Shown here piece by piece: positions 32,322-58,907 of a stretch of 64,000 nucleotides of DNA; positions within the stretch are counted from its first letter, which is position 1; each line of letters begins with the position of its first letter. Origin of the DNA: Candidatus Saccharimonadota bacterium (GTDB lineage Bacteria > Patescibacteriota > Saccharimonadia > Saccharimonadales > Saccharimonadaceae); NCBI GenBank assembly GCA_017515105.1, contig JAFWHO010000001.1, forward strand, positions 202,903-266,902. The letters are read 5' to 3'. The notes beneath the pieces were generated by a model, which saw only the letters and a program-made list of their open reading frames with translations, was not told the origin of the DNA and made no database searches. Both the position numbers and the translations under genes were made by a program.

Positions 32322-32411
32322 AAAGCGGCCCATTGGAGCCGTGGCGTAAGCGTCTGGACGAAGTTCGAACTTCAATGCAAAAAGTTTATTCTATAACATG
32401 CTAAAAAACAT

Positions 32412-33630: not shown

Positions 33631-33985
33631 AAAATGGCGGACAGGTGTGTCACAAATTGGAACCTTCTCAAGGCGGAACTTATTCGTTGGGATAAACTCT
33701 TAACTCCTATCAGAGAAGAAAAAGAGTTATACCAATTAACTTAGTATATTAGAACTAATATAGGTAATATGGCTTGGTTCTAAACTTGTGAATACCGATA
33801 GCAAAATCGTCTATTTGCCAAAGGCTATGTGCTACCAGAAGCGAAGAAACGACAACTCAATATAAAGCACCTTAACAGAGTAAATATCAAAGACCTAATA
33901 AAATATCACTTTTGAACGAAAAATGTCGCAAAATGGTTAAAAATTGACAGATATTAGATTTTTAGTGATACTTTATCAGTGCCAA

Positions 33986-34191
33986 AACGCTTAAGTCCAA
34001 CAGGGGTAAAGTTCCTATAAAGTTCCCAAATAAACGATAAATGCCATATAAGTGTCGTATAAGTGTCGTTTTTTTGACATTTGATAAACGCTTAAAGGTT
34101 ATGTTCAACAGGGGTAAATGTGCTATAAATGTCCAGAATAGCGACTATAACGCTTAAGTCCAACAGGGGTAAAGTGTGTATAAAGTTGTGG
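33986..34191. repeat. iteron-like repeat region upstream of the tyrosine recombinase
   Basis: AACGCTTAAGTCCAACAGGGGTAAAGT..TATAAAGT at 33986 and 34149, with a diverged copy at 34087. Tandem ATAAGTGTCGT x2 at 34048-34069. Confidence 0.7.
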
Positions 34192-34271
34192 AATGGGGGG
34201 GTATCATTTGACAATAGAAATAGTAATGCTACGATACGCTCGTCATATAAAAAATCAAGGAAGGACCACCA

Positions 34272-35174: not shown

Positions 35175-35568
35175 AGAGCAAGAGTTCAAATTAAGAGTTG
35201 TGGGCGGGCTGGATTTTTATGAAGTGTCGTCTGCATTTATTAAGGAACTGGAAGCCCATAATACATATAAGGCTTGCTTATGGGCATTTGTATTACTTCA
35301 GAGCGGCTACTATAAGCATATATGGAAACACTTGGCTATCTATGCGAGCCAATTAGAAAGCAATCAGATAATCGAAATATCGGCACTGCGAAATTGCTTC
35401 GACCTTAATACGACGGCCAAAGACCGCAAAATGGAAGAAGGTTTTTGCTATATCTGTCGAGCAATCATCAGCCTTTGCAATGATAAGGAAAATACAGCAG
35501 AGATGACGGATAAAATAATCAAAAAATACTGCTCTGGTTACTGGCCAGAACTGCTACCTGCATCTTAA
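35164..35568 (+). CDS. hypothetical protein
   Basis: ORF overlapping the integrase stop by 11 nt. No motif recognised. Confidence 0.5.
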   Translation: MTCKEQEFKLRVVGGLDFYEVSSAFIKELEAHNTYKACLWAFVLLQSGYYKHIWKHLAIYASQLESNQIIEISALRNCFDLNTTAKDRKMEEGFCYICRAIISLCNDKENTAEMTDKIIKKYCSGYWPELLPAS

Positions 35569-35599
35569 TTTTAAGTACATTTTATGTTATAATTAAAAT

Positions 35600-35782
35600 G
35601 TTCGAAGTCCTAATCTATAGTAAGTCTATCCTGACTGAATAGGTAAAGTATTGAACCCTTCGTGGAGCACTCGCTCCAGTCGGCTCAATCGCTTACTGTA
35701 GAAACAGGAACTTCGAACACTCCTAGCGAGTGTTCCACTTAGTTTTAGGGGCACTTCTCGGATTTAGTTAATTAACAAAGGA
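35600..35782 (+). ncRNA. candidate structured 5' leader/ncRNA
   Basis: Extended -10 TGTTATAAT (35585-35593). Long-range stems 35600-35610/35707-35718 and 35615-35624/35692-35701. Local hairpin 35664-35677 competes with pairing to 35725-35736. Confidence 0.35.
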
Positions 35783-36691
35783 GTGCCAATGGAAACAAAT
35801 GATAATATCAAATCTGCGAGTAAAGCCAAAAAAGGCTTACCGGACTTCTTCAAGCAACACAAGAAAAGTTGCTTAGTCGTGCTTGGTATTATCTTGGGGG
35901 TAATCATTATTGGTGCTATTAGTGTTGCAATCAGGAACAATATCGAAGAAAACCGAGATTATTATATTTCGGTAGATAAAGAATATGCTTTTGATTGCAA
36001 TGCAAGTTATGACGAGAAGACTAAAGAAATATCTTGTGAAGAACAAACAATAACTGGCAAGTTTTCAGAATACCCCACAGTAAAAATTGATGGCTATATT
36101 ACGGTTCATACTGACGGCGACAAGTTCAGCATTAAGCCTTACAACGACATATACAAGAACCGTTACGAAACCGATGACTTTGATATTGAAAAATTAGAAA
36201 AAGGTTTATCAACCGACTACATTATTTATCTTGAGAATACGCAACTAAACAAGCGCTTTGCAGAAACAACAATCTCTGTTCGTTATAAATTATCTGAAGC
36301 CGACAAGGAACTCATTACAAAGAAACATAACGACTGGAAAGAGTGGAAAGAGGGTGAAGACGCAAAGGCGAAAGCCGAAAGTGAAACCAAAGAGCAGGAG
36401 CAGAAACAGGAAGCAGAAACTGAAACAAGCACAACAACCACTGAAGAACACTCTTATTTAGATGCACTCCGTAAATGCACGGTAATGGAAGCCGCCGATA
36501 TCTACACTACTGGCATTGGTAAAAAGAGTGATAATGTTTTCAATGACGGACGAGATACTTGCAATACTTGGTATTCACAGTGGGGTGAAAATGATTTCTT
36601 CGAGGCTGTTTATATCGACTGGGAAAATCGCAAAACCGAAGAAATCGACGGACAACCGCTAACATATTATCTAACAATTCTAGGTTGGTAA
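35783..36691 (+). CDS. membrane-anchored hypothetical protein
   Basis: AAGGAG RBS. ATG at 35789 (METNDN) is probably the real start. One TM segment and an E/K-rich linker. Confidence 0.6.
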   Translation: MPMETNDNIKSASKAKKGLPDFFKQHKKSCLVVLGIILGVIIIGAISVAIRNNIEENRDYYISVDKEYAFDCNASYDEKTKEISCEEQTITGKFSEYPTVKIDGYITVHTDGDKFSIKPYNDIYKNRYETDDFDIEKLEKGLSTDYIIYLENTQLNKRFAETTISVRYKLSEADKELITKKHNDWKEWKEGEDAKAKAESETKEQEQKQEAETETSTTTTEEHSYLDALRKCTVMEAADIYTTGIGKKSDNVFNDGRDTCNTWYSQWGENDFFEAVYIDWENRKTEEIDGQPLTYYLTILGW

Positions 36692-36700
36692 GGAGTATAT

Positions 36701-37324
36701 ATGGGATTGTTTGACGGCATTAAGCAGATGAAGAAGAATAATGATGATTTTATCAAATCTCTTACTAAACCATTTGAAGATAAAAAAGCGGCAACCGAAG
36801 CCCACAAGCAGGCTGTCGCTAACGGTGATATCTCACCAATTACTCCATCTGTTAAATTAAAGCAGGGCGAGAAAGCCTATGCAGAGTTCCCTGCAAAGCG
36901 TAAAGCCATAGTAACCACAACCATTCAACGAACTGTCGAGAAAACCAAGAAAAAAGGCGGAATAACTAGAGCCGTAGTCGGCGGAGCATTACTCGGCCCA
37001 GTCGGAGCGGTAGTCGGAGCAACCACCGCTAAAAGCAAAGGTAACTCGGTTGGTTATACTGAAGATATAGAAAGCCTAAACGATATAGACCAAGGGATCT
37101 TGGTGCTTACTGACCGGCGTATGCTATTTGTTGGACAAGAAATCGTCAGTATTCCGTATGATGAACTGATAGGTGTTAAGTTTGAAAACACAATTACTGG
37201 TGCGGAAATCAGCGTCAAATATGCAGGTATGCTAAAGGGCGAGCAATATTTCATCTCTGGCAAAGAAGCGAAGTTGTCGAAAATGTATTATCAGGCCATT
37301 ACGGAGAAGTTGTTGAAAGCCTAA
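36701..37324 (+). CDS. hypothetical protein with glycine-zipper segment and possible bacterial PH-like C-terminus
   Basis: AVVGGALLGPVGAVVGA is a glycine zipper. LVLTDRRMLFVG...IPYDELIGV resembles bPH/YokE-type domains (weak). Confidence 0.5.
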   Translation: MGLFDGIKQMKKNNDDFIKSLTKPFEDKKAATEAHKQAVANGDISPITPSVKLKQGEKAYAEFPAKRKAIVTTTIQRTVEKTKKKGGITRAVVGGALLGPVGAVVGATTAKSKGNSVGYTEDIESLNDIDQGILVLTDRRMLFVGQEIVSIPYDELIGVKFENTITGAEISVKYAGMLKGEQYFISGKEAKLSKMYYQAITEKLLKA

Positions 37325-37433
37325 AATCGGCTCATTATGCCGATAATTTCAATTACAAGAATTATCTATTTAGTACCCTTCCGTATCTGTAAAGCCATCA
37401 TTTATGGTATAATATTTTGTATGGAAGGATTGT

Positions 37434-38252
37434 ATGTGGGGATCAGACTATTTTGATGAAGGATACGAATATCAGGATATTGCTGAAGAAATCCTTGATG
37501 ACACTGTCCGCATTATGCAATCCAATACTGGCGAAACTAAACTTTCTAAAAAATACGCCTTAAAACTTCAAAAAGCAGAATTCGAAAAAAAGATAATAGA
37601 AGCGCAATTCGAGGGAGCCTGCAAAATGGGTTGTATGCACATTAACTCCCTTGTAAAAGAAAGGGGCAAAGAAATATTACAGGTAGATATTGATTTACTA
37701 GAGCCTCGTTATTCATACTACTGGCGATATTATACAGATTTAATAAATAATCCAAAGCAGAAGAAAAGCCTAAATGATTTGATGAGCCAATCGATAATTG
37801 ACCCAAAAGAAGTATATCAGTGCAAATTAACCATCGAAAACAATGAAGTTTTCTTAACCTGGAATAATGGAAAACACTGGTTATATGATTTTGGGAATAA
37901 GTCGAACTCCGCTAGAAGAAATTTATTCGAAGCCGCAATCACTAACCCAGATATATTATTGTCTAAAAAAGATTTAGAAGAAAAAACTGGGGAGAAATAT
38001 ATAGGAGCCAGACTGAAAGAACATTTTACAAAAATGTTCTTGAGAAAAACGCTCAATGAGTTATTTGTAATCAGCGATTACTCTCCAAAAGAAGGTCACA
38101 GAATAGGAGTTAAAAGTCTAGTAAGCATATCCGGATATGATTTGATAAAGATAATCAGAGAGCAATTGGCATATTCAACCAATGAAAAAAGACAGAATAT
38201 GATAGACCGAAATCGGAAGTTTATGCAAAAAATGTCAAAAACCTGTCAATAG
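37434..38252 (+). CDS. hypothetical protein
   Basis: ORF of 272 aa. No motif recognised. Confidence 0.5.
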   Translation: MWGSDYFDEGYEYQDIAEEILDDTVRIMQSNTGETKLSKKYALKLQKAEFEKKIIEAQFEGACKMGCMHINSLVKERGKEILQVDIDLLEPRYSYYWRYYTDLINNPKQKKSLNDLMSQSIIDPKEVYQCKLTIENNEVFLTWNNGKHWLYDFGNKSNSARRNLFEAAITNPDILLSKKDLEEKTGEKYIGARLKEHFTKMFLRKTLNELFVISDYSPKEGHRIGVKSLVSISGYDLIKIIREQLAYSTNEKRQNMIDRNRKFMQKMSKTCQ

Positions 38253-38371
38253 GATTTTTACTCCGCAGATAGTCCGTCGAAAAAATATCCATAGCCCAAC
38301 GGCTATTTTTTCATACTCCGCAGACACTCCGCAGACAAAGGCTCTTAAAAAACCGGCCTTAAAATGACAGT

Positions 38372-38560
38372 ATGAGCCCGCAGGAAGAAATAATGACAGT
38401 CGCAGAACTTCGTAAAATCGTTAAAGCCGAGTATTCTTCGACTTTAGTCCTTCCAAGCGATGACGAACTCAAAGATTGCATCAATCTTCTTGCTGGGCTC
38501 GCAACTTTACAATATAAACTCTCTAAGAGAGAAACCCCCAAAACGAGATACGGCGAGTAG
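38372..38560 (+). CDS. small hypothetical protein (possible excisionase/regulator position)
   Basis: 62-aa ORF immediately upstream of the serine recombinase. No motif recognised. Confidence 0.3.
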   Translation: MSPQEEIMTVAELRKIVKAEYSSTLVLPSDDELKDCINLLAGLATLQYKLSKRETPKTRYGE

Positions 38561-38642
38561 GAGAAGAACCACGAGTTCGAAACTCCACTCGCCTTTCTTG
38601 ACTTTTGGTGTTTTTCAAAGAGAATAAAAGAAAGGATACTAT

Positions 38643-40421
38643 ATGACTAAACAGTCAAATATCAAAAAACGCAAAGCAGTTATCTACGCTCGAGTTTCTA
38701 GTGAGCGGCAAGTAGATAATATGAGCCTAGGCGAGCAACAAAGAGTTTGTAAGGCTTATTGCAAACGCTACTTCAAAGATGATGTTTCGGAAGAACGTAT
38801 CTTTGTAGAAAAAGGCGAGAGCGCCAAAACCGCCAATCGAACAGAACTTCAAAAAATGCTGAAGTATTGTGCTCAACACAAGAAAGAGATTGGCTATGTG
38901 GTTGTCTATAAAGTTGATAGATTTTCGCGCAAAGTAGCAGATTTCGCAGCGCTAAAAGCAATTCTTGCAAAAATGGGCATAGCCTTGCGATCCGTAACCG
39001 AACCAATCGGAGAAGAAAGCAACACTAGTGTTCTTATGGAAAACATTTTGGCCTGTTTCGCTCAGTTCGACAACGATATGAGAGGCGAGCGAGCACAGAC
39101 TGGAATGCGAGCAGTCGCAAATGAAGGTGGCTGGACAATGTGCGCACCGGTAGGTTACATAAACTGGAAGAATGAGACAAAGAAATCGACCTTAAAGGTA
39201 GATGAAGAAATGCGAAAGCCTATACAAAAGTTCTTTACTAAGTTTGCTACTGGTCTTTATACACAAGAAGAAGCAGTCGAACTGGCAAAGAAATGTGGTA
39301 TTCGCAACAAGAAAGGCGAGCCGATGTCTAGAACTGGTATTCATAAAATGCTACGAGCACCAGTCTATGCTGGTTGGGTTTGCAACAAATCTACTGATTT
39401 CAAAATGGTAACAGGTCTTCACGAAGCACTTATAGATAGAAGTTCTTGGTATAAGATACAGGATTTGCTAGACGGTAGAACTGAAGAAGGGCTTCCGACC
39501 AGAAGTAGATTACCAAAGTATCATAAGAATAACTCCAAGTTTCCACTACGCCGTTTTTTCGTATGTAGCATCTGTGGCAAACCACTAACTGGTAGTACTT
39601 CAAAAGGTCATACGACCTGTGTTTCATACTATCACTGTCACAGATGCAGTGTGAAAAATTGCGGTCACCGTGTTTCCGTTCAGCAAGAAGAAGCACACAG
39701 AAAATTCGAGGAGTTGCTGGCTCAAATAGAGCCAGCCCCTTGGGTTCCTGCTGTGTTTAAAGAAATTGTTATAAGGCAGTGGAATGACGATTTTAAGGAC
39801 GCAATTAGGAATGTGAAAGAAGTAAATAGCAAAATTGCTGAATTAGAAAAGAAGAAAAGCAAGTTAATCGATAAATATGTCGAAGATAAGATAAGTGAAG
39901 AAGATTATAAATGCAAAATTGCTGGCTACGAACAAACCAAACGCAGTCTAGAAGCCGAAAAAGTTACCCTAGAGGAAAATAAGATAACCAAAGAAAGCGT
40001 GCTAGACACGGCAATGGAGTTTATAACTGGGCTGGTTACTACTTGGCGAAATCTACCCCTGGAAGAAAAGCAAAAGTTCCAAATTGCAATTTTTCCAAAG
40101 AAAATTACAGTGTTGCCAAATGGCGACTTTGGAACCTACGAAATTAGCCCAATTTTTCAAGAAACAACAGAGATAGAACGCACTTTAACAGACAATAAAA
40201 ACGGCTCCCCTTCGGGGGATGCCACTATGGCGGAAGCGAGAGGATTCGAACCTCCGAGACTATTGCTAGCCCACACGATTTCGAGTCGTGCGCCTTCAAC
40301 CACTCGGCCACGCTTCCGCCCCCAATTCTACCATATTCTCCCCTATTTTACAATTGCTACCAGCATTGGCGCGCAGCCCTTTTTGTGTTATCCTAAAGAA
40401 AAGGAGACAAAACCCAGATGA
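38643..40421 (+). CDS. large serine recombinase; the 3' ~65 codons run antisense through tRNA-Ser and host flank
   Basis: AVIYARVSSERQ (catalytic Ser), a resolvase fold, a recombinase domain, a zinc ribbon (CSICGKPL...YYHCHRC) and a coiled coil. The ORF has no stop until 40419-40421. Confidence 0.85.
   Translation: MTKQSNIKKRKAVIYARVSSERQVDNMSLGEQQRVCKAYCKRYFKDDVSEERIFVEKGESAKTANRTELQKMLKYCAQHKKEIGYVVVYKVDRFSRKVADFAALKAILAKMGIALRSVTEPIGEESNTSVLMENILACFAQFDNDMRGERAQTGMRAVANEGGWTMCAPVGYINWKNETKKSTLKVDEEMRKPIQKFFTKFATGLYTQEEAVELAKKCGIRNKKGEPMSRTGIHKMLRAPVYAGWVCNKSTDFKMVTGLHEALIDRSSWYKIQDLLDGRTEEGLPTRSRLPKYHKNNSKFPLRRFFVCSICGKPLTGSTSKGHTTCVSYYHCHRCSVKNCGHRVSVQQEEAHRKFEELLAQIEPAPWVPAVFKEIVIRQWNDDFKDAIRNVKEVNSKIAELEKKKSKLIDKYVEDKISEEDYKCKIAGYEQTKRSLEAEKVTLEENKITKESVLDTAMEFITGLVTTWRNLPLEEKQKFQIAIFPKKITVLPNGDFGTYEISPIFQETTEIERTLTDNKNGSPSGDATMAEARGFEPPRLLLAHTISSRAPSTTRPRFRPQFYHILPYFTIATSIGAQPFLCYPKEKETKPR
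40228..40317 (-). tRNA. tRNA-Ser (anticodon CGA), CCA encoded
   Basis: The reverse complement gives GGAAGCG-TG-GCCGAGTGGTTGAAGGCG, anticodon arm CACGA-CTCGAAA-TCGTG, a long variable arm, GGTTCGAATCC, and CGCTTCC-G-CCA. Confidence 0.9.
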
Positions 40422-42962: not shown

Positions 42963-42986
42963 TCTTTATTGTGCTATAATAAACCC

Positions 42987-43487
42987 ATGCAATGGGACAA
43001 AATCACTAACATAATCTTAATATCATCATTCGCCGTCTTGGCAATCTTCGTAATCTTGGCTATTTGTCAGTGGATTTCTCGTAAATCCCTCAAAAAAGTC
43101 GACAAAGAGCTCCTCTGGTTTCCTCTTCCTCTGGCTCTCATGGCTGCGACCTACGTTATTTTTGACAAATTCTTAGTTCTAAACACCCGCCCAGACGGTT
43201 CCGGCGAGCCTTCCTTCCCTTCCACGCACGTCATGGTCGTCACTACAATCTTCCTTCTTGCCGCAATCGTTTTGCCAAAATACATCAAATCCAAAGCCGC
43301 TTGCGCCGTTCTCTATGTTTTCATGCTTGCCTTCATCGCGCTAGTCGGCGTCGGCCGTGTTCTCGCTAATAAGCACTGGCTTTCGGACGTTCTAGGCGCG
43401 CTCGGATTTGCCATAGTTTTTGCCTTTATCTACTATCTAATCATAAGGAGATACAAAAATGCCAAGCATCTTCACAAAAATAATTAA
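42987..43487 (+). CDS. PAP2-family membrane phosphatase
   Basis: Start set at ATG 42987, 6 nt after TATAAT. TRPDGSGEPSFPSTHV and GRVLANKHWLSDVLGG fit the PAP2 motifs. Confidence 0.7.
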   Translation: MQWDKITNIILISSFAVLAIFVILAICQWISRKSLKKVDKELLWFPLPLALMAATYVIFDKFLVLNTRPDGSGEPSFPSTHVMVVTTIFLLAAIVLPKYIKSKAACAVLYVFMLAFIALVGVGRVLANKHWLSDVLGALGFAIVFAFIYYLIIRRYKNAKHLHKNN

Positions 43488-44161: not shown

Positions 44162-44244
44162 CCCCTTTCATATTATGATAAAGGACCATTAGAAACTATC
44201 CCTATATTATACCACAAAACCCATAATTATGCTATAATGAACCC

Positions 44245-46989
44245 ATGAAATTTGCATCTAGTTACGAGCCTGGGGAGTACGAGTCGGATATTTATGCCGC
44301 TTGGGAATACGCAGGCATATTTAACCCAACCACACCCACTAAGCCAATCGATGACGACGGTGATGGCGTCGACGATCGCGAAGAAGGTAACAAAAAAAGA
44401 AACACTTATTCAATCGTCATGCCACCACCGAACGCCAACGGCAATCTTCATATTGGCCACGGCCTCACGGTAGCTCTCGAGGATTCCCTCACCCGCTACT
44501 ATCGCCTAAGAGGCGACTCTGCTTGGTACGTTCCTGGCGCCGACCACGCCGGTTTTGAAACCTGGGTTGTTTATGAGAAATTCCTCGAAAAACAGGGCCA
44601 CACTAGATTCGAATATGATCGCAACGAACTATATGCAAAAGTCTGGGACTTTGTCGCAGAGCAGCGCGGCAACATGGAGCTCCAGCTTCGCGCCCTTGGC
44701 GCTTCCTGTGCCTGGGACGACCTCACCTTTACGCTAGATGAAAATGTTATTGATCGCGTCTACACCACATTTGAAAAAATGTGGAACGACGGCCTAATCT
44801 ATCGCGGCGAGAAACTCGTTAACTACTGTCCAAAGCACCGCACCGCTTTCGCCGACATCGAGGTCACTCACAAAGATGAGCCAGGTACCCTCTGGGATAT
44901 CGAGTACAAATTGGCAGACGACCCCGAGAAAGCCTTGATCGTTTCTACCACTAGGCCAGAAACCCTCTTCGGCGATACTGCTGTAGCTATTAACCCTGAA
45001 GATAAACGCTACAAAGACCTAGTCGGCAAAAAAGTTAAACTACCACTTACCGATCGCACCATCCCGATTATTGCCGACGAGCACGCTGACCCCGAATATG
45101 GTACCGGCGTCGTCAAAATCACCCCAGCTCACGATTTCGATGACTTCGAAGTTGGCGAGCGCCATGATTTGGAGCGTATTCAGGTGATTTCTGAATCTGG
45201 CAAAATGATCAATGTCCCCGAGAAATACTACGATCTCACTACAAAAGAATGCCGCAAGCAGGTTCTAAAAGATCTCAAAGAACAGGGGCTCTTAAAAGAT
45301 GAACATAAAATCACTCACTCTGTCGCCCACTGTTATAAGTGCGACACCGTCTTGGAGCCAATGCTAAAAGAGCAATGGTTTGTTGATGTCGAGAAATTAG
45401 CTAAAGAGGCTATGAAACATATCGAGGCTGACGAAATCAAGTTCTTCCCTGAGAATAAGAAAAAAGTCCTCTTAAATTACTACAACAATTTGAGAGACTG
45501 GAACATTTCCCGCCAAATCCCTTGGGGTATCGCTATCCCGATGTTCAAAAAAGCCGACGAAGATGCCACCGACGAGCCAGATTGGATTTTCGATCGCCGC
45601 ACTAATCTAAAAGAAATTGAAAAAGGCGGCGTCAGATATGTTCGCGACGAGGACACTTTTGATACTTGGTTTTCATCAAGCCACTGGCCTATCATTTGTA
45701 CTAACTGGACCGAAGAAAACTACAACCCATATTATCCGCTAAATGTCATGGAAACCGGTGCTGACCTGCTCTTCTCTTGGGTTTCTCGTATGATTATGAT
45801 GGGTGTATATATCACCGGTGAAGTGCCATTCAGAGAGGTTTATATGCACGGCATGGTGCTTGATTCCAAGGGTCAAAAAATGAGCAAAAGCAAAGGCAAC
45901 GTTATCAACCCTATGGAGCTCGTCACCAAATATGGCTCCGACGCTTTCCGCCTTGGCATCATGCGTGGCCGCTCTGCTGGTATGAACCAGGCCTTTTCCG
46001 AAAATTCGGTAATTGCTGGTCGCAATCTCTGTAACAAGCTCTGGAATATTTCCCGCCTCATCCAAACATTCGTCGACGATGAGGATTCCGAGCTCAAGAA
46101 TGGCATCTCTCGAGGGCTTCCGGAGGTTACGACCGAGGATGAGGGCGTGAGCCCTGTGACGACAGGCGCGAACGACCCGTCCCGAGAAGATGCCATTCTT
46201 GGCTCGTTCTCTTATTCAACAGATAATATGGGTGAAGACTGGATCTGTCGCGAGATCAACGAATGCCTAGACCAGGTCGAATACGACATAAAAAACTATC
46301 GTTTCTCCGAAGCCGTCGACACTCTCTACCAAACCATCTGGGATAAATACGCCGACTGGTTCCTCGAATCCCAGAAAATCTTCAAAAACGTTGGGCTACT
46401 AAAAACCACGCTTTCTACGCTTTTGATAGCTCTTCACCCCTTTGCCCCGTTCGTCACTGAGACTATTTGGCAAAGCCTCAGCTGGACCGAAGGCTTCATC
46501 GCTACAGCTAAATGGCCCGCCAGACTTGAATATGACCCTATTTCAGCCGAGGAGTTTGAAAACATAAGGATTATCGTGTCTGAAGTGAGAGGCACCCTCA
46601 CGGCCCTTCCAGGTACCAATAACGCCAAAAAATATAAGCTATTATACGATAACGACAGCCTCGTAGAAGATAACCAGTTTCTTATCAAGACTCTCACCAG
46701 AGTTCCGGCCATCGATCCATTAGAAGGCTCCCCGCGTGGTCTCAGACTCGCTCTCGCGAATCACGAGCTCTATCTAGACGTCCCAGAGAAAGTCGTTAAG
46801 GAGTACAAGGATACCCTCACTGAACGCATCCTTAGTGTCGGCCGCGAGCTAGATGCCCTAAATCTCCGCATGGAAAATCCAAATTACGTCAATCGCGCCC
46901 CTGCCCACCTCGTCAAGGAGACACAGGATCAGATCAAAGAAAAAGAGGCCCTCATCTCTCGCCTCAAGACCGAACTCGAATTAATCTAA
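44245..46989 (+). CDS. valS: valine--tRNA ligase
   Basis: PPPNANGNLHIGH (HIGH), KMSKSKGN (KMSKS), an editing domain, and a C-terminal coiled coil. Confidence 0.95.
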   Translation: MKFASSYEPGEYESDIYAAWEYAGIFNPTTPTKPIDDDGDGVDDREEGNKKRNTYSIVMPPPNANGNLHIGHGLTVALEDSLTRYYRLRGDSAWYVPGADHAGFETWVVYEKFLEKQGHTRFEYDRNELYAKVWDFVAEQRGNMELQLRALGASCAWDDLTFTLDENVIDRVYTTFEKMWNDGLIYRGEKLVNYCPKHRTAFADIEVTHKDEPGTLWDIEYKLADDPEKALIVSTTRPETLFGDTAVAINPEDKRYKDLVGKKVKLPLTDRTIPIIADEHADPEYGTGVVKITPAHDFDDFEVGERHDLERIQVISESGKMINVPEKYYDLTTKECRKQVLKDLKEQGLLKDEHKITHSVAHCYKCDTVLEPMLKEQWFVDVEKLAKEAMKHIEADEIKFFPENKKKVLLNYYNNLRDWNISRQIPWGIAIPMFKKADEDATDEPDWIFDRRTNLKEIEKGGVRYVRDEDTFDTWFSSSHWPIICTNWTEENYNPYYPLNVMETGADLLFSWVSRMIMMGVYITGEVPFREVYMHGMVLDSKGQKMSKSKGNVINPMELVTKYGSDAFRLGIMRGRSAGMNQAFSENSVIAGRNLCNKLWNISRLIQTFVDDEDSELKNGISRGLPEVTTEDEGVSPVTTGANDPSREDAILGSFSYSTDNMGEDWICREINECLDQVEYDIKNYRFSEAVDTLYQTIWDKYADWFLESQKIFKNVGLLKTTLSTLLIALHPFAPFVTETIWQSLSWTEGFIATAKWPARLEYDPISAEEFENIRIIVSEVRGTLTALPGTNNAKKYKLLYDNDSLVEDNQFLIKTLTRVPAIDPLEGSPRGLRLALANHELYLDVPEKVVKEYKDTLTERILSVGRELDALNLRMENPNYVNRAPAHLVKETQDQIKEKEALISRLKTELELI
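46096..46200. repeat. 105-bp GC-rich palindromic element, in-frame inside valS
   Basis: Perfect 13-bp inverted arms at 46096-46108 and 46188-46200. The core shares TGAGCCCTGTGACGAC and GACAGGCGCGAA with the tsaD element. Confidence 0.75.
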
Positions 46990-50225: not shown

Positions 50226-50575
50226 ACCTAAATTTTAGCATACATTTACACACGCATTGCACAAGAATTATCCACAAAAGCATAATCACGATAATGCCCT
50301 TCCCTCGGTATCCTAGCACACTGCGGGTCTAGCAACCGCGCTTGACAAACCAAAAAGCATACGCTAAAATCAAAGTAACAATTGCCACCAGGCAATTGGG
50401 AGTAGTTTTAGCAACCAAGAACGAAAGATAGAGTCTCCACAACTTTAACGCTAAAACAGGGAAAATTCGAAAAACAACCGGCAAAATAACCAAAAGTCGG
50501 AAATTTTGCATAAGCATAAAATATAATGCTTATGAAGTCAACTAATTTCACAGCACAACATGCTATAATGATGAT

Positions 50576-51520
50576 ATGGAAATTCCTATTACACAGTCCA
50601 AAGAATGGCTAGTATTGCAGCAGGACTTAAAAGAAAAATCAGTTTACGTAGACGAAAAAGACTACAAATACCTAGCAATAATCAAATCTACACCTGTTGG
50701 GAACTATCTTTATTTGCCCTACGGCCCTGTTTACAAAGACGAAATAGCTTTTCAAAAGGCCCTGGATAGCCTGAAGCAGATTGCAGCCACCCATCAAGCA
50801 ATCTTTATCCGAATCGAACCTCGAGACAAAAACTTCACAGAATATTTACCGAAAAATACCAAAAAGACTAAAGATCTAAACCCCAAAGAAACCTGGGTGC
50901 TAGATCTAAAAGGGACCGACGAACAGTTAACCAAGAAACTCCCCAGCCGCCTCCTTCGCTATTACAAAGGCGCCGCGAAAAAAGGAATCACAATCGAGAA
51001 ATCCAACAATCCAGACGATATCATCCACCTTTTAAGACTTCAGCAAGAATTAGCCAAAGAAAAGGGAATCAGTACCTTCTCAGAGAACTACCTCAAGACT
51101 GAACTATCCCAGCCCTTCGCTACACTCTATCTAGTGAAATATAAAAACGAAGAGATGGACCGCCAAGAAATCGTCGCCGCTGGCTTAGTATTTGACGATA
51201 AAACCACCAGATACAACCTCCAGGGCGCCCAGAATGACACCGGTCGCAGCCTCCACGCCACCGGGATTCTGACGATCCAGCTAATCAAAGATGCCAAAGA
51301 AAAAGGCCTCAAAACCTTTGACTTCTGGGGTATCGCCCCAGAGGGCGCACCACGTAGCCACCCCTGGGCAGGCTTTACCAATTTCAAGAAGACCTTCGAC
51401 GGCTATGAAAAAGATTACGCCGGCACCTACGACGTCATCATGAGTCTGATAAGATACCACCTTTATACATTCTTTCGTAGATTAAACAAAATAAAAAGAA
51501 ATAACCATGCAAGAAATTGA
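50576..51520 (+). CDS. FemAB-family peptidoglycan branch aminoacyltransferase-like protein
   Basis: YLYLPYGP, RYNLQGAQ...HATGILTIQLIKDAKEKGLKTFDFWG and FKKTF are FemAB-like. Confidence 0.75.
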   Translation: MEIPITQSKEWLVLQQDLKEKSVYVDEKDYKYLAIIKSTPVGNYLYLPYGPVYKDEIAFQKALDSLKQIAATHQAIFIRIEPRDKNFTEYLPKNTKKTKDLNPKETWVLDLKGTDEQLTKKLPSRLLRYYKGAAKKGITIEKSNNPDDIIHLLRLQQELAKEKGISTFSENYLKTELSQPFATLYLVKYKNEEMDRQEIVAAGLVFDDKTTRYNLQGAQNDTGRSLHATGILTIQLIKDAKEKGLKTFDFWGIAPEGAPRSHPWAGFTNFKKTFDGYEKDYAGTYDVIMSLIRYHLYTFFRRLNKIKRNNHARN

Positions 51521-54156: not shown

Positions 54157-54269
54157 AATGTACTCCCCCTTCCTTTTTAAAAATGTAAAGAACAATGGGA
54201 AAATCATAACATAAACACGGAATAAAAGCAAGCGAAAAGACTAAACACCCAACGTGCTATAATTAAGAT

Positions 54270-56570
54270 ATGGAAATAAAGGGTTTAAGTAAAGCAGATG
54301 TCGAAAAACGCGTCAAAAATGGCGAAGTGAACATCGTCCCATCAAAAAACAAAAACACCATCCCCAAAATTATCCTCAAAAACACCCTCACGGTATTCAA
54401 TCTCGTCAATCTTATACTTGCTATCATGATTATTCTTGTAGGTAGCTACAAAAACCTCCTCTTCGTCCTCATCGCTATCGCCAACACCTTAATTAGTATT
54501 GTAAATGAAGTTCGCGCCAAACGCACCGTAGACAAAATGCGTCTCGTTTCCGAGCAAAAACCGACAGTTCTAAGGGACGGTAAAACCATCCAAATCTCCG
54601 GTAGTGAAATCGTCAAAGACGACATCGTTATTTTCTCATTAGGCGACCAGGTTCTAGTGGACTGCGAGGTAAAAGAAGGCAAAGTCGAAGTCAATGAAGC
54701 CTTTGTCACAGGTGAACAAGACAACATCGTCAAACAAAACGGCGACAAACTCGCCTCCGGCTCATTTATCGTCTCCGGCACTTGTAAAGCCAAAGCCATC
54801 GCAGTAGGGAAAGACAGTGCTCTCAACAAAATCCAGTCTACCGCCCATACCGTGAGGACCGCCAATTCCAAACTCTTTACACTCATGAACAACATCGTGA
54901 AATACATCTCGATCGCCCTCATCCCAATCGGCGCCCTTGTTCTCTGGAGCCGCTTCAGGGTGGCCGACAACGATACTACCACCGCTGTGACGAGCACTGT
55001 AGCTTCCCTCATCAATATGATCCCAGAAGGCCTTATTCTCCTCACTTCAAGTGTACTGGCCCTCGCCACCATTAGGTTGAGTAGGCGCCAGGTCCTCGTT
55101 CAGGACCTCTATTCTGTCGAAACTTTGGCTCGCGTCGACGCCATCGCCTTGGATAAAACCGGCACCATAACCACCGGCCGGATGACAGTCCATGATTATA
55201 CTCCCAACGAAAAATCCTTTGAAAAGGCCCTAGCATCCATTCTGAGCCATCAAGCCACCGAAAACCAAACCATAACAGCCTTAAAGAAAAAGTTCGCGAA
55301 AAGTGCGAAAAATAGCGAATTAGACGAAATTACCGAAATCATCGATTTTTCTTCTGACCGTAAATACTCTGGCATCAGGACCAAAAAAGCCACCTATCTT
55401 CTCGGTGCCGTCGATTTTATTACTGATGACAAATCAATAGTCGACAAGGTCAAATCCGCCTCCGAAACGTATCGCACTCTCGCCCTCGTCAAAAAAACCA
55501 ACAATAAAGACACTCTTCTCGGATTTATTCGCCTCGAGGATGAGATTCGCCCCGACGCCAAACAAATCATCAAATACTTCTACCAAAACGACATCGATAT
55601 CAGGATAATCTCTGGAGATGACCTCGATTCCGTCGTTTCCATCGCCTCTCGTGTCGATATCAAAGACATCAAAGGCGTCAATCTCTCTAGCCTAGGAAAA
55701 TTAGACTACAATAAATTAGTCAAAGAGTATAACGTATTTACTCGTGTCACCCCGGCTCAGAAAAAAGAGCTTATCAAAGCCATGCGAAAACAAGGCAACA
55801 CTGTTGCTATGACCGGTGATGGCGTAAATGACATTTTAGCCATGAAGGAAGCCGATGTTTCAATCGCTATCGGCGAAGGGTCCGACGCTGCTCGCCGCAG
55901 CGCCAAACTAGTGCTCCTAAACTCCGGTTTTGAATCCATTCCAAGCGTCATCGACGAAGGCCGCCAATCCATCAATAACCTCGAACGCTCCACCACTCTT
56001 TTCCTCGCCAAAACCGTCTACGCCAGTATTTTAGCAGTGATCTTCATCTTTGTCCCAATCAAATATCCATTTTCTTCACCGGTCGAAATGTCCCTGCTAA
56101 ACTTCGCCTGTATCGGTTTCCCGGGCCTCATCTTAGCCCTGGAGCATAACACCGAAAGAATCAAAAACCGCTTCGCCCGCAACATCATCGAGTATTCCGT
56201 ACCCGTCGGTTTCACCATCTCAATCGCCATGTTAACCCTCTCACTTCTCGCCCACTTCGGCGTATTCCCTTCGAGCGACCTCGCCACCACTGCTATTTTC
56301 GTCACTTTCGCTATCGATCTCATCCTGATCTATTGGATTTCCCGCCCAATGAACAAACTCCGCGCCAGCCTCTTCATTTCAATCATCGTTGTCATGATCG
56401 GCGCATTCCTCATCCCATTCTTTCACAAATTCTTTGACTTTGTCTTCCTCACCCCAGAAGGCCTCATCACCACATCGATTGCCATCGCTGCCGCATTCGC
56501 TGTGTTCGAAATCCTAAAAGCCCTCATGGGAAAACTCGCAAACCGCCTCTTCAAAACCTCCGGAATTTAA
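54270..56570 (+). CDS. cation-transporting P-type ATPase (HAD-IC family)
   Basis: DKTGTIT (phosphorylation site), TGEQD-type actuator region, MTGDGVNDILAMKEADVSIAIG, and about 10 TM segments. Confidence 0.9.
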   Translation: MEIKGLSKADVEKRVKNGEVNIVPSKNKNTIPKIILKNTLTVFNLVNLILAIMIILVGSYKNLLFVLIAIANTLISIVNEVRAKRTVDKMRLVSEQKPTVLRDGKTIQISGSEIVKDDIVIFSLGDQVLVDCEVKEGKVEVNEAFVTGEQDNIVKQNGDKLASGSFIVSGTCKAKAIAVGKDSALNKIQSTAHTVRTANSKLFTLMNNIVKYISIALIPIGALVLWSRFRVADNDTTTAVTSTVASLINMIPEGLILLTSSVLALATIRLSRRQVLVQDLYSVETLARVDAIALDKTGTITTGRMTVHDYTPNEKSFEKALASILSHQATENQTITALKKKFAKSAKNSELDEITEIIDFSSDRKYSGIRTKKATYLLGAVDFITDDKSIVDKVKSASETYRTLALVKKTNNKDTLLGFIRLEDEIRPDAKQIIKYFYQNDIDIRIISGDDLDSVVSIASRVDIKDIKGVNLSSLGKLDYNKLVKEYNVFTRVTPAQKKELIKAMRKQGNTVAMTGDGVNDILAMKEADVSIAIGEGSDAARRSAKLVLLNSGFESIPSVIDEGRQSINNLERSTTLFLAKTVYASILAVIFIFVPIKYPFSSPVEMSLLNFACIGFPGLILALEHNTERIKNRFARNIIEYSVPVGFTISIAMLTLSLLAHFGVFPSSDLATTAIFVTFAIDLILIYWISRPMNKLRASLFISIIVVMIGAFLIPFFHKFFDFVFLTPEGLITTSIAIAAAFAVFEILKALMGKLANRLFKTSGI

Positions 56571-56634: not shown

Positions 56635-57663
56635 ATGGAACCAAATAACGTAGCCCCGACAGGGAGATCATCGGGTTCAGCCCCGCAAGATCAAGCAGCA
56701 CAAACCGAAGTTATAACTTCAAAACCAGATACGACAAGTAGTCAGCCCTCGCCAATAGACAAACCAACCAAATCTTCGAAGCCGCTAATCTGGATTCTAG
56801 CAATTCTAGCAGTGATCGCTATCGCTGCCGCTGGCGTATTCGCCTACCTATATTTTACTAAGCCAACCACCCCACCGTCTGAACCATCAGAGGAAACTAG
56901 TCAAGAGACTCCGCCAGAGGAAACAGCCGAAGAAACCGAAATCACAGACACCTACATTCTTCGTGATTTAGATGAAAAAATGGCAATTTTGCATAACACC
57001 GACGAGACGGGCCCCCTAATCAAAAAATTAGGAGTCGGTTATGGATATGTCTCACCTTTATATAAAAATGGAAATCTGAGCGAAATAGCAAAACTAGCAC
57101 ACATTTTTATGGCAACTGTTCCAGATTATATTTTGACTAGCCGTGAGATCGAGTCAGCTATTGCCGAGCAGGGATATGACAAAGACTCCGCCCAAGACTT
57201 TAGCACCACGGTTCATGATGGGATCAAAGGGGATACTATGGCTGCAAAGTATAAAGATCTTTTTGGAGAAGATCTAGTAAAGGGTGCCGCTAATGGTGAA
57301 TATTATTGCCCAGGGGCATACTACAATTCGCAGTATGATTTTTATTATAATCCAACGTTAGGGTGTGGTGGGACCGGACCATACTTTGGTGTTTATTATA
57401 AAAACAAGTACACGACTGACGGCGAGCATGCTTATGTCTATGTAAGCGCAGGAACATTTAACGCAGAAGATAATAAAACCTATTGCGATATTTTCGAGTA
57501 TGGAGTATCTGAACAAAGCAAACCAGCCGTCTGCGGAGAAGCTGAAAATCCGGACAGCTTCACTATAAACGAGAGTAATTATCAAAAATTCGCAGAGTAT
57601 CGCTTCGTCTTCAATAAGGCAGACGACGGTACCTACTACTTCGTCAAAGCAGAAAAGCTTTAA
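56635..57663 (+). CDS. membrane-anchored secreted hypothetical protein
   Basis: TACAAT promoter at 56598-56603 and an AAAGGAG RBS. TM segment LIWILAILAVIAIAAAGVFAYLYF followed by a P/E/T-rich linker. Confidence 0.6.
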   Translation: MEPNNVAPTGRSSGSAPQDQAAQTEVITSKPDTTSSQPSPIDKPTKSSKPLIWILAILAVIAIAAAGVFAYLYFTKPTTPPSEPSEETSQETPPEETAEETEITDTYILRDLDEKMAILHNTDETGPLIKKLGVGYGYVSPLYKNGNLSEIAKLAHIFMATVPDYILTSREIESAIAEQGYDKDSAQDFSTTVHDGIKGDTMAAKYKDLFGEDLVKGAANGEYYCPGAYYNSQYDFYYNPTLGCGGTGPYFGVYYKNKYTTDGEHAYVYVSAGTFNAEDNKTYCDIFEYGVSEQSKPAVCGEAENPDSFTINESNYQKFAEYRFVFNKADDGTYYFVKAEKL

Positions 57664-58826
57664 TTCTCGATCGATATCCTCGGATAAATATTGAGTTTAT
57701 ACGGATCCACCGGTTTCGCACCGGCTTGGATCTCGTAGTAACATGCCACCCCCACCATTGCACCATTATCACCAGATAGCGACGGGGCAGGGAAAAACGC
57801 CTCTGGCAACATCCCGCGCAGCACCTCATTGGCGCTCACGCCACCAGCCACCACCACCGATTTGGCATCAGGATATTTTTCAAGCGCCAAATCTAATTTT
57901 TCACAGAGAATCTCCATCGCAGTCTTCTGGAAAGAGGCCGCAAAATCCGCCACCTGCTGCTCATTAAGAAGCTCTTTTAATTTGTGTGACGGATAAGAAA
58001 TTGGCACACCCACCTCTTTCTGCACGGCGCGAAGCATCGCTGTTTTAAGCCCCGAAAACGAGAAATCAAGCCCCTCCACTTTCGGGTGTGGGAACTTATA
58101 CTTGTTTGCATCACCGCTTTTTGCAGCCTTAGCAATCGCCGGCCCGCCTGGATATGGTAAACCTAAAATCTTCGCCGCCTTATCAAAGCATTCTCCCACC
58201 GCATCATCCTTCGTGGTCCCAACAATCTCAAACTGATCATGTCCCTTCATGTACAGAATCTGCGTATGCCCCCCTGAAATCACCAACGCCAATATTGGGA
58301 AAAAAGGAAAACCAGAAATAGTACTTTCGAGACCGTGCGCGACCAACGGGGAGCGCTTTGAGCGACTGAGCCCTGTAACGACCGCCCCTTGGGACGCGGA
58401 CGACCTCTGGTCGACAGGCGCGAAGGAGCAAGTCGAGAAAGTACTATTTTGGTTTTCCATTTTTAGCCAATTTGCATACACATGTGATTTCAGGTGGTGC
58501 ACCGCATATAGCGGTTTATCGTGGAGCACGGCAAGCGTCCTCGCCGTCAGCGTCCCAATCAGAAGCGACCCAAGAAGCCCCGGCGCATGCGTCACCGCAA
58601 TCGCGTCAATATCATCCCAGGTACAAGAAGCATCACTAAGCGCCTTATCAATCACCGGTAGCATCACTTCAAGGTGCGATCTTGCCGCCACCTCTGGTAT
58701 TACGCCCCCATATTCAGCAAAAATATCAATCTGGCTCACTACCACATTGGACAAAATCTTAGCGCCGTCTTCAACCACGGCCGCCGCAGTTTCATCGCAG
58801 CTCGTCTCTATGCCGAGTATTTTCAT
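57660..58826 (-). CDS. tsaD: tRNA N6-adenosine threonylcarbamoyltransferase TsaD, carrying a ~45-aa insertion
   Basis: Start set at MKILGIETSCDETAAAVV (58826). Motifs include VISGGHTQ and GGVSAN. Confidence 0.9.
   Translation of the reverse strand: MKILGIETSCDETAAAVVEDGAKILSNVVVSQIDIFAEYGGVIPEVAARSHLEVMLPVIDKALSDASCTWDDIDAIAVTHAPGLLGSLLIGTLTARTLAVLHDKPLYAVHHLKSHVYANWLKMENQNSTFSTCSFAPVDQRSSASQGAVVTGLSRSKRSPLVAHGLESTISGFPFFPILALVISGGHTQILYMKGHDQFEIVGTTKDDAVGECFDKAAKILGLPYPGGPAIAKAAKSGDANKYKFPHPKVEGLDFSFSGLKTAMLRAVQKEVGVPISYPSHKLKELLNEQQVADFAASFQKTAMEILCEKLDLALEKYPDAKSVVVAGGVSANEVLRGMLPEAFFPAPSLSGDNGAMVGVACYYEIQAGAKPVDPYKLNIYPRISIEN
58316..58449. repeat. 134-bp GC-rich palindromic element inside tsaD
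   Basis: Perfect 12-bp arms AAATAGTACTTT (58316-58327) and AAAGTACTATTT (58438-58449). The core carries TGAGCCCTGTAACGAC and GACAGGCGCGAA. Confidence 0.75.
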
Positions 58827-58907
58827 GAGACCAATTATACCACAAAACCGCCGAAAAATCCGTCTTGACAAACTATTTAACAGAGAAAATATATCACAAT
58901 ATGAATA

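Follow-up and report, generated by a model that had tools for sequence, protein, structure and literature searches.

A probable family of translated selfish hairpin repeats in protein-coding genes of Candidatus Saccharibacteria

Background

The valine--tRNA ligase gene (valS) of a Candidatus Saccharibacteria genome carries a GC-rich palindromic block within its reading frame. What is this block: a peptide module of the enzyme, a functional RNA, an intervening sequence, or a piece of mobile DNA? An earlier note on the 64-kb stretch of DNA analysed here (the window) took it for a hairpin-type repeat or mobile element, with the Rickettsia palindromic elements (RPEs) as precedent. Palindromic repeats lying in frame within essential genes have so far been chiefly a Rickettsia curiosity.

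Results and discussion

The valS locus exhibits the following features (window coordinates, strand, description and basis).

44245..46989, + strand: valS (valine--tRNA ligase, 914 aa), host of copy 1; ORF and translation, with homologues named valine--tRNA ligase of Candidatus Saccharibacteria
46090..46206, + strand: copy 1, full imperfect palindrome, in frame and sense in valS; covariance model R1, folds, and indel against the empty allele L001
46095..46117, + strand: 5' strand of stem P1, an exact 14-nt outer arm (46095-46108) and the inner conserved CTCGAGGGC; inverted repeat and fold
46119..46139, + strand: short hairpin P2, UCC-GGA-GGU(UACG)ACC-GA-GGA; predicted fold
46143..46178, + strand: long hairpin P3, GGGCGU-GA-GCCCUGU(GACG)ACAGG-C-GC-GA-ACG-A-CCC; predicted fold
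46179..46201, + strand: 3' strand of P1, GUCCCGAGA and the outer arm; inverted repeat and fold

The basic description given in the earlier note is confirmed. Segment 46188-46200 is the exact reverse complement of 46096-46108; the exact inverted repeat spans 14 nt (46095-46108/46188-46201), and imperfect pairing extends out to about 46090-46206. The core is GC-rich (67% GC at 46109-46187 and 60% over the block, against 48% for valS and 47-49% for the 300-nt flanks). The block starts at codon position 1 of valS and runs for 35 codons with 0 stops (peptide KNGISRGLPEVTTEDEGVSPVTTGANDPSREDAIL). Copy 1 matches R1 at 46094-46202 (52.1 bits, E-value = 5.7e-9). Its minimum free energy as RNA is -56.9 kcal/mol (z = -7.2, 0/200 shuffles as good), and folding with DNA parameters gives z = -5.8. 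The proposed AGGGC-GTGA-GCCCT hairpin does not represent the conserved pairing, the family structure being GGGCGU/ACG.CCC and GCCCUGU/ACAGG.GC. The P3 hairpin has GA/GA internal loops and contains the family signature CCYGY-RRCG-RCRGG. The inner TCGAG of the P1 5' strand is kept across copies, and P2-equivalent hairpins with other stems are present in other classes; helix 3 covaries.

The block lies C-terminal of KMSKS, as already proposed, between parts of the protein aligning to residues 503-591 and 629-694 of Thermus thermophilus ValRS (1GAX). The linker between these parts has 38 residues in T. thermophilus against 78 here, and by this alignment the insert falls at a variable junction, where the catalytic part of ValRS meets the anticodon-binding part. 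An AlphaFold model of ValRS, based on 32 close homologues, has a mean pLDDT of 46.8 and is too poor to show a surface loop. We infer that transcription and translation include the insert, which would add a hydrophilic loop that the enzyme tolerates. An insert-derived peptide, such as GLPEVTTEDEGVSPVTTGANDPSR, is predicted if the insert is translated.

Both core motifs recur in tsaD, as previously pointed out: GACAGGCGCGAA occurs only at 46161 and 58413 (0.00 expected by chance), and TGAGCCCTGT at 46148 and 58367. The tsaD copy and a further palindrome of the window are as follows.

57660..58871, - strand: tsaD ORF, host of copy 2, with a likely start (MKILGIETS) at about 58826; homologues named TsaD, carrying PF00814
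58294..58471, + strand (motif strand, antisense to tsaD): copy 2, 178-bp palindrome with 40-nt arms, in frame; inverted repeat, R1, folds and TsaD loop alignment
58383..58412, + strand: 30-nt extension at the tip of P3, mark of a "long-loop" subfamily; also in the valS copy of L207
12411..12572, no strand assigned: "class D", an unrelated second palindromic family, 162 nt, intergenic between convergent genes

Copy 2 matches R1 at 58311-58453 (62.4 bits, E-value = 1.9e-11). The "long-loop" extension is also seen in the sequence of ValRS P0072 (SPVTLAPWDANCRRQTGA). A nested insertion as its origin in tsaD is ruled out by the same extension in the L207 valS copy, which makes it a subfamily mark. 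In other species class D is an occupant of the valS loop. The window copies are 109-178 nt long, with fold z-scores of -5.8 to -8.5; those of palindromic inserts at the valS site range from -3.9 to -10.6.

The valS block is one copy of a multi-copy repeat family. With model R1, the window and contigs of related Saccharibacteria together yield about 40 copies (27 in the window plus relatives, 11 in seven further contigs and 2 in L209). The same set is recovered by nhmmer and the signature pattern, and 20/20 matches of the signature in 1.1 Mb are true. Many more copies of the core exist at other loci in related genomes; the earlier count of two coding copies stands for the window, and is far exceeded once relatives are included. 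Together with the ValRS indel described below, they support the earlier view of a hairpin-type repeat or mobile element inserted in frame.

Almost all copies are intragenic: 38 of the approximately 40 lie within long ORFs. ORFs of at least 277 aa house 25/27 tabulated copies and, judged by gene coordinates, 13/13 later ones. The host proteins are ValRS (3 sites), ArgRS, TsaD, Dus, TatD, a RumA-like methyltransferase, a P-type ATPase and FemAB, and the valS loop is read through in frame at 78/80 valS loci. These figures bear on the possibility of an intervening sequence, intron-like or intein-like, removed after transcription or translation to leave a mature enzyme without the insert. The hairpin does juxtapose its flanks, as in bulge-helix-bulge or RNase III substrates. 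However, frame and the stop-free state are kept in 38 of about 40 copies and at 78/80 valS loci, and splicing needs neither. Moreover, both orientations are found, intein motifs are absent from the 35 aa, and Rfam gives no intron match. We consider an intervening sequence most improbable.

The homologues matched by ValRS and TsaD are from Candidatus Saccharibacteria. In a scan of a genome collection with the pattern TCGAR..CCYGYRRCGRCRGG..CSRRGA, which is too loose for high-GC genomes, 6 of the 120 matches listed are true and the other 114 are due to chance. All six are from Saccharibacteria or Nanosyncoccus, among them genomes from the guts of goats and cattle. On our best reading, the carriers are a herbivore-gut clade of Candidatus Saccharibacteria, namely Nanosyncoccus and relatives. 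Three class-specific patterns gave 0, 0 and 1 matches in viral contigs, and the single one (L201) fails R1; these contigs thus give no sign of a phage vector. In the window, Rfam identifies only four tRNAs at gathering score, and its best matches on the element have E-values > 1. There is no matching Rfam family and no prior description in the literature searched, so that the family is apparently undescribed.

Between very close relatives, one and the same loop can be filled in one, empty in another, or hold an insert of another class or orientation. An alignment of ValRS orthologues reveals an indel at the valS loop, the linker being short in 17 and long in 101 of the 120 closest cluster representatives. 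The long linkers do not correspond to one homologous peptide; they contain palindromes of several sequence classes, frames and orientations. Neither a non-palindromic ancestral linker common to all relatives nor a lack of further copies, the two findings that would have spoken against a repeat, was encountered. The L001 ValRS has an empty loop and is 96% identical to the window ValRS over aligned residues. Against it the expected indel is present; its length is 36 rather than the predicted 35 codons, and its borders are not placeable to the base. ValRS P0003 and P0004 are 93.6% identical with different inserts. In TsaD a long loop is present in 94 of 120 close relatives, and P0122 and P0123, 97.4% identical, differ by 37 aa. 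The cleanest case is the pair L203 and L204 (TsaD 96% identical): the difference is precisely 90 bp, no more than 1 nt of the junction is ambiguous, and the outer arms remain, directly adjoining each other. In this presence/absence pair, as in the others, insertion is not separable from deletion.

No target-site duplication is seen in this pair and no direct repeats at the 27 copies; no conserved termini were found among the copies, and no target motif is definable. Elsewhere, L202 retains only a remnant of another class, and L205 combines two classes in a composite element. Arms of class A (GAGAGCGAATYCAGAAATGG) are common to valS site 1 in L002 and the valS N-terminal site in L006. At the same valS place, a distant clade carries an insert of comparable size that is not palindromic. 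A pre-existing palindromic target at virgin valS sites is ruled out, as empty alleles fold like shuffles (z about 0).

What is conserved among the copies is a nucleic-acid structure, with no conserved peptide. In the common architecture, the long outer stem P1 encloses a three-way junction from which the short hairpin P2 and the long hairpin P3 branch off, with RRCG loops. Pairing is found in 93.2% of cells against 61.2% after shuffling, 39/41 pairs show changes on both sides, and the covariation score is 0.67 against 0.16 (shuffled) and 0.07-0.12 (partners slid), all counted on an alignment fitted to the model. Class C alone exhibits compensatory changes in 20/41 pairs, and helices 4-6 (P3) are 96-100% paired with changes on both sides. 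Mutational template switching, it may be noted, can keep palindromes complementary without selection. The three-way-junction core is the conserved part and the outer arms vary: they are inverted in every copy, share only an inner TCGAG...CCGAGA and, near the junction, a loose purine-rich GARAAT motif, and are copy-specific over the outer 6-17 bp. The motif strand folds more stably than its complement in 26/27 copies with RNA parameters (mean difference 7.9 kcal/mol) and in 10/10 with DNA parameters, and it contains conserved G-U and tandem G-A pairs. Resemblances to hammerhead, twister, tRNA-like, retron and group II domain V structures were rejected, as the conserved nucleotides do not agree.

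Across the copies, peptides come from three or more reading frames and from either orientation (PVTTG, PRNDG, antisense SPRADG, APVVTG), which implies that the nucleic acid, not the peptide, is conserved. This counts against a protein-level adaptation, in which an acquired peptide module would be selected for a function in ValRS or TsaD. Such a module might explain the long loop of most close relatives (101/120 ValRS, 94/120 TsaD) and the similar-sized non-palindromic insert at the same place in the distant clade. Yet the same DNA is fixed neither in frame, with at least three in use, nor in orientation; conservation is in nucleotide pairing, and empty alleles occur in proteins 96-97% identical. 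We regard selection for a peptide as exceedingly unlikely.

The orientation of the copies follows the DNA strand and not the host gene. All copies of a contig lie on the same strand in each of the 11 contigs with 2-4 copies (28 copies, 0 discordant), many of these being orthologous, non-independent sites, with about three or four independent re-orientation events in all. Where tsaD opposes valS (the window, L002, L006, L205 and L203), the tsaD copies are antisense; in L209, where tsaD is co-oriented with valS, its tsaD copy is sense. The unrelated class E palindrome exhibits the same orientation pattern in L207 versus L163. As to replication, four DnaA-box-like sites (TTTTCCACA) adjoin dnaA (14739-14868); this cluster would assign the copies to the right replichore and their motif to the lagging-strand template. 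GC skew shows no sign change at dnaA, at odds with the fork direction based on the DnaA boxes. The local gene-strand majority, taken as a leading-strand proxy, agrees in 17/22 contigs, and is partly circular.

These orientations also bear on whether the element is a functional mRNA structure (a processing site, translational pause site or stabiliser) selected for its fold. The very stable folds, the strong covariation, and the G-U and tandem G-A pairs favouring one strand all fit such a role. However, the motif strand coincides with the mRNA in valS and is antisense in tsaD and TatD, orientation tracks the DNA strand rather than the gene, element-free and otherwise nearly identical orthologues are common, unrelated palindrome families occupy the same loop, and there is no Rfam match. 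A selected mRNA function is therefore very improbable.

The family to which the valS block belongs is very probably a translated selfish repeat family. Our best reading is that of RPE-like, small (about 90-180 bp), non-autonomous, translated selfish hairpin repeats that colonise protein-coding genes. Selection would remove out-of-frame or stop-containing insertions from essential host genes, and the element may be still moving, or have moved recently. The opposite case is an ancient and now immobile repeat: one or a few insertions in the clade ancestor, vertical descent, hairpin-templated repair, and empty loops arising by deletion. The same loops are indeed occupied across species whose ValRS are just 70-85% identical, remnants and central deletions exist (L202, L204), and a mobilising enzyme was not found among 30 window ORFs. 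Against this, one class is present at different loci and different classes at one locus in close relatives, cores are about 90% identical between loci despite far more diverged host genes, arms are common to two different sites, orientation is reset where tsaD is inverted, and element trees conflicting with host trees are already suggested. We consider immobility improbable.

How might such selfish repeats move? By analogy with the replication-coupled single-strand transposition of IS200/IS605 and REP/RAYT, the element may be excised and pasted as folded single-stranded DNA by an enzyme acting in trans; we put forward this specific, replication-coupled mechanism tentatively. Single-strand transfer would explain why target duplication is absent, why the structure belongs to one strand, why the copies show strand polarity, and why the 90-bp excision or insertion is clean. 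A palindrome-bearing loop could be a preferred landing or replacement site, and such re-landing would give class turnover and composite elements. Arm complementarity may be kept by templated repair within the hairpin, by selection for the hairpin, or by both. The scan of the 30 window ORFs found no transposase, HUH enzyme or reverse transcriptase, the only recombinases being a tyrosine integrase and a serine recombinase in an island. No autonomous IS or longer element with the same ends was found in the 64-kb window or in the other loci analysed. The fullest form of the proposal would be a new kind of structure-defined mobile DNA: a three-way-junction hairpin excised and inserted as single-stranded DNA at the fork by a Saccharibacteria enzyme, without fixed termini or target duplication and preferring palindrome centres, for which permissive loops of essential genes would be self-renewing landing pads. 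In this complete form we judge it rather unlikely.

The closest known counterparts are RPE-1 to RPE-10 (Ogata et al. 2000, 2002), as summarised in PMC2229807 and PMC10969869. Both are about 100-150 bp long with a long stem-loop, lie in frame within conserved housekeeping genes of a small-genome, host-dependent bacterium, are read through as an extra peptide (here a prediction), and form several families for which a transposase is not known. The host phylum differs, and the likeness is drawn from descriptions rather than from RPE sequences; with Candidatus Saccharibacteria as host, membership in RPEs by descent is very unlikely. The RPE families are each reported to encode a conserved peptide (PMC10969869), in contrast to the several frames and both orientations of the Saccharibacteria element. 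The latter further differs in its three-way-junction core with copy-specific arms, its filled/empty polymorphism between near-identical genes, and its strict same-strand orientation. To our knowledge, no such strict orientation has been reported for RPEs.

Other small repeats share fewer features. Bacterial MITEs (Correia/NEMIS, ERIC/IRU, RUP, Coxiella QMITE), some copies of which are fused in frame to ORFs (PMC2229807, PMC2759123, PMC5896051), are likewise small, multi-copy and without a transposase of their own, with inverted repeat ends and a long RNA stem-loop. However, MITEs have conserved terminal repeats, a usual target duplication (often TA) and a parent IS, and are mostly intergenic, whereas here the termini are variable, the one clean pair shows no duplication, a search for a parent IS found none, and 38 of the approximately 40 copies lie within genes. 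REP/REPIN with RAYT and the IS200/IS605-derived elements (HUH Y1, "peel and paste") share one-strand hairpins, the lack of target duplication, and conservation of structure more than sequence; seamless excision and an orientation tied to the replication strand may also be common to both. Those elements are extragenic, carry a defined tetranucleotide tag or target (GTAG/CGTC, PMC3733652) and are accompanied by a Y1 transposase gene. None of these features is demonstrated for the Saccharibacteria element, whose long enclosing stem and three-way junction they lack. Integron attC sites (57-141 bp) are also imperfect palindromes conserved in structure and not in sequence, and their use as a folded single strand with strand selectivity would again be similar. 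In contrast, attC lie at cassette ends beside an integron integrase and have R/L boxes (GTTRRRY); there are no boxes, cassettes or integron here.

Conclusion

An independent and abundant family in Saccharibacteria, ultra-small CPR episymbionts, suggests that coding palindromes are a general outcome in tiny gene-dense genomes. Much of the variation in length among ValRS, TsaD, ArgRS and other core proteins of this clade is explained by the element, which may also supply new surface loops. It is a pitfall for gene calling, for alignment and for phylogenomic marker sets. Handles for testing are provided by near-identical genes with filled and empty alleles, by the three-way junction and its defined loops, and by the strict strand polarity. 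Saccharibacteria are now culturable and genetically manipulable (PMC10633639), so that the mechanism is open to such tests. If true, the reading as structure-defined single-stranded DNA would offer a tractable model for the movement of RPE-like coding palindromes.

Palindromes in valS and tsaD

The earlier note described a 105-bp palindromic block inserted in frame in valS, with core motifs shared with tsaD. Homologues of its ValRS and TsaD place the window in Candidatus Saccharibacteria (TM7). The two palindromes and their host genes are located as follows.

44245..46989, plus strand: valS ORF
46090-46206, plus strand: palindrome in valS
57660..58871, minus strand: tsaD ORF, host of the second palindrome
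58294-58471, plus strand: palindrome in tsaD, 178 bp with 40-nt arms

All of these claims hold. Segment 46096-46108 is the exact reverse complement of 46188-46200; the exact arms measure 14 nt, and imperfect pairing extends out to about 46090-46206. The 79-nt core has 67% GC against 48% for valS, and the block starts on codon position 1 of valS and runs for 35 codons without a stop. The palindrome folds far better than shuffled sequences, both as RNA (-56.9 kcal/mol, z = -7.2) and with DNA parameters (z = -5.8). The core motif GACAGGCGCGAA occurs at 46161 and 58413 (two in the window, 0.00 expected), the latter within the tsaD palindrome, where the motif lies on the plus strand and is thus antisense to the gene. 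In the protein, the insert falls between blocks aligned to residues 503-591 and 629-694 of Thermus thermophilus ValRS (1GAX), a stretch of 78 residues in the window ValRS and 38 in 1GAX.

An indel at a hot spot of ValRS

An ancestral linker would be expected in all relatives as one homologous peptide. In the nearest 120 ValRS cluster representatives, KLWNISR and GEDWICRE are 20-28 aa apart in 17, 41 aa in two and 45 aa or more in 101. The nearest relative that lacks the insert (P0002, locus L001) has a ValRS 96% identical over aligned residues and reads VDDEAGNESAPYSTLNM at this site, the window being 36 codons longer. The long alleles do not share one homologous peptide; they divide into several DNA classes, all of them strong palindromes with z between -10.6 and -3.9, while the short valS alleles fold no better than random sequence. 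By sequence comparison, then, the ValRS block is an insert of the kind first claimed, an indel at a hot spot and not an ancestral linker.

Contents of the long valS loop in the window and related loci
Class A: ValRS peptide RGLPEVTTEDEGVSPVTTGANDPSRE; window and L002
Class B: ValRS peptide EGGPEPGKARSSATTPVATGVVDAPRE
Class C: ValRS peptide RDNGS..EEPRNDGRDEASRE, or SRS..ERPxPVTTG..RERSEK
Reversed class A: valS loop of L023
Classes D and E: valS loop; two palindromes unrelated to classes A-C

In a more distant Saccharibacteria clade (L056-L080, ValRS 63-69% identical) this place is taken by a non-palindromic insert, EKGFSETDVSVVLGNEANGAVHQTASDSINPEVYQY, that is conserved and about 32 aa long (e.g. 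L057 11756-11956); it may derive from an element that has decayed or been domesticated. The acidic N-terminal ValRS stretch DDDGDGVDDREEGNKKRN (residues about 36-53; window 44350-44420) is a second hot spot, empty in the window and filled in L006 (10147-10258), L207 (10135-10246) and L208 (10144-10252).

A repeat family with a conserved structure

Further copies of the core, for which the earlier note proposed a search, are numerous in related contigs and occur at several loci. The signature CCYGY-RRCG-RCRGG has 20 matches in 1.1 Mb of related contigs, all 20 being true copies, and an nhmmer profile recovers the same set. Among the matches listed from a loose-pattern scan of a genome collection, the six true ones are all from Saccharibacteria. 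No Rfam family matches the element.

From a gapless alignment of six class C copies we obtained a consensus of 41 pairs, 20 of which show compensatory changes, and built the covariance model R1. R1 detects every class A, B and C copy, hits no other place in the window, and revealed 13 more copies in eight additional contigs. The modelled structure consists of a long stem P1, with a copy-specific outer 6-17 bp and an inner part TCGAG...CCGAGA, closing a junction that holds a short hairpin P2 and a long hairpin P3 with GA/GA internal loops; the loops of P2 and P3 are both RRCG. In the R1 alignment, 93.2% of paired cells are complementary (61.2% shuffled), 39 of the 41 pairs show changes on both sides, and the covariation score is 0.67 (0.16 shuffled, about 0.1 with slid partners), figures that lean towards structure because the alignment was fitted to the model. 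Individual folds of the copies give the same architecture independently of that alignment. With RNA parameters, the motif strand folds more stably than the opposite strand in 26 of 27 copies, by a mean of 7.9 kcal/mol; with DNA parameters it does so in 10/10.

Host genes and reading frames

Twenty-five of the 27 tabulated copies lie inside ORFs of at least 277 aa, and so, by gene coordinates, do all 13 copies added later. The hosts are all housekeeping genes.

Host genes of the element
ValRS: three different sites
ArgRS: L193 2314-3857, three copies in one gene, all in frame, on one strand
TsaD, tRNA-dihydrouridine synthase and TatD
RumA-like methyltransferase: same site in L177 and L044
P-type ATPase: two sites
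FemAB: same site in L011 and L023

Host genes read the core in three or more frames and in both orientations, and the frame across the valS loop is preserved in 78 of 80 loci. These observations argue that the conserved unit is the nucleic-acid structure, predicted translation through the element being merely tolerated. On average 3.1 of the six frames are open per copy, against 2.0 in shuffles.

Probable gain, loss and replacement

The TsaD loop from YANWL to FPLLALVVSGGHT parallels that of ValRS: in the 120 closest representatives it is short in 14, intermediate in 12 and long (up to 99 aa) in 94, the long loops including many classes and frames in both orientations. Two TsaD representatives (P0122 and P0123), 97.4% identical, differ by 37 aa through presence of the element. 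In L203 and L204 (TsaD 96% identical), exactly 90 bp (TGTTTTCTCGAC...GTCTCGAAAACGC) are extra in L203, and L204 retains both outer arms, abutted; the junction is ambiguous by 1 nt at most, hence there is no target duplication. L202, with a TsaD 94.8% identical to that of the window, has only a class B remnant where the window has a long class C copy, and valS of L205 holds a composite, the 5' half of class A and then an entire class C element. Class A arms are common to the first valS site (L002) and the N-terminal site (L006), so the arms travel with the element, at least sometimes. Insertion and deletion are indistinguishable within any one pair, and the filled, empty and replaced loops, compared as sequences, are better explained by repeated gain, loss and replacement than by one ancient insertion.

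Strand polarity

In every contig with at least two copies, all copies lie on one DNA strand (window 2, L002 4, L003 2, L006 4, L023 2, L193 3, L204 2, L205 2, L207 2, L208 3, L209 2). Orthologous sites and a general bias towards sense copies account for much of this pattern; the cases that follow are the telling ones. The tsaD copies are antisense where tsaD opposes valS (window, L002, L006, L205, L203). The SPOUT-tsaD block of L209 runs in the direction of valS; its tsaD copy is in sense orientation and shares a strand with the valS copy. L207, arranged like L209, has a sense class E palindrome in tsaD; L163, where tsaD opposes valS, has an antisense one. The reversed valS copy of L023 is on the same strand as its FemAB copy. 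Orientation therefore follows the chromosome strand and not the host gene, which points away from a role in the host mRNA and towards a strand-asymmetric process at the DNA level.

In the window, dnaA-dnaN-recF occupies 14.8-18.6 kb. The DnaA-box-like TTTTCCACA has four sites clustered at the start of dnaA (14739-14868; also 16280), adjoining an AT-rich stretch (14.4-14.8 kb) where gene orientation switches; oriC is probably at about 14.6 kb. Both copies would then lie on the right replichore and carry the motif on the lagging-strand template, a placement that is uncertain because plus-strand GC skew is negative on both sides of the putative oriC, with no sign change.

Other features of the window and its relatives

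12411-12572: near-perfect 162-nt palindrome flanked by a convergent LCP-family gene and a Jag/KhpB-like gene; RNA fold -80.8 kcal/mol
34272-35174: tyrosine integrase
38643-40421: large serine recombinase, overlapping tRNA-Ser(CGA) 40228-40317 on the opposite strand
59416-59644: two tandem 77-nt units, 95% identical, directly beside tRNA-Gln

The centre of the first palindrome, ACGGACGAG...GACGAGTCCGCCT, is homologous to the class D insert filling the valS loop in L004 and L011; judged by this homology, it is with class D a second palindromic repeat family, intergenic here. Class E is a third, unrelated GC-rich palindrome with core GAGCGTGTCCGAAGGACACGC (L008 3623, L033 2958, L163 5874, and tsaD of L207, 21241-22341). 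Depending on the species, it sits in the valS loop or in tsaD, and it appears to obey the same same-strand rule.

The region at about 28000-40400, with two Fic/RhuM-like genes and the two recombinases, is a probable integrated island; its GC and AT skew differ from the surroundings. In each 77-nt unit the first 20 nt or so match the tRNA-Gln end TGGCTGGACCGGCAGGATTCG, and the units look like leftover attachment sites from integration into that tRNA gene. A recurrent TGCTATAAT (extended -10) box 6-7 nt 5' of ATG starts, including that of valS (42970-43002, 44228-44260, 50556-50583, 54250-54277, 60826-60858), suggests that leaderless mRNAs are common in this genome.

Possible movement of the element and comparison with known repeats

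The element resembles IS200/IS605 and REP/RAYT systems in that it shows no target duplication, can be read as a structure on one strand, has a strand polarity and accounts for a clean 90-bp difference. The element might move, as these do, by single-strand "peel and paste" transposition, which we tentatively favour as the likeliest mode. Neither a Y1/HUH enzyme nor a fixed target or conserved end came to light, and a Pfam scan of 30 window ORFs detected as recombinases only the tyrosine integrase and the serine recombinase of the island next to tRNA-Ser. The complementary, copy-specific outer arms may result from repair templated by the hairpin, from selection that maintains it, or from copying of the flank in inverted form; in L002 the right arm GGATTCGCTC mirrors the left host flank.

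The element differs from a classical MITE in the window and related loci, where its outer termini vary between copies, no target duplication is seen and no parent IS was found. Literature searches returned no account of such elements in Saccharibacteria or Patescibacteria. The closest analogue is the Rickettsia palindromic element (RPE), from a different organism. Each RPE family reportedly encodes a conserved peptide, whereas the present element is not tied to one frame or orientation; neither its strand polarity nor its copy-specific arms are known from RPEs. In the best-supported reading, the element is a non-autonomous selfish hairpin, predicted to be translated as an extra loop of its host proteins, and a functional analogue of RPEs.
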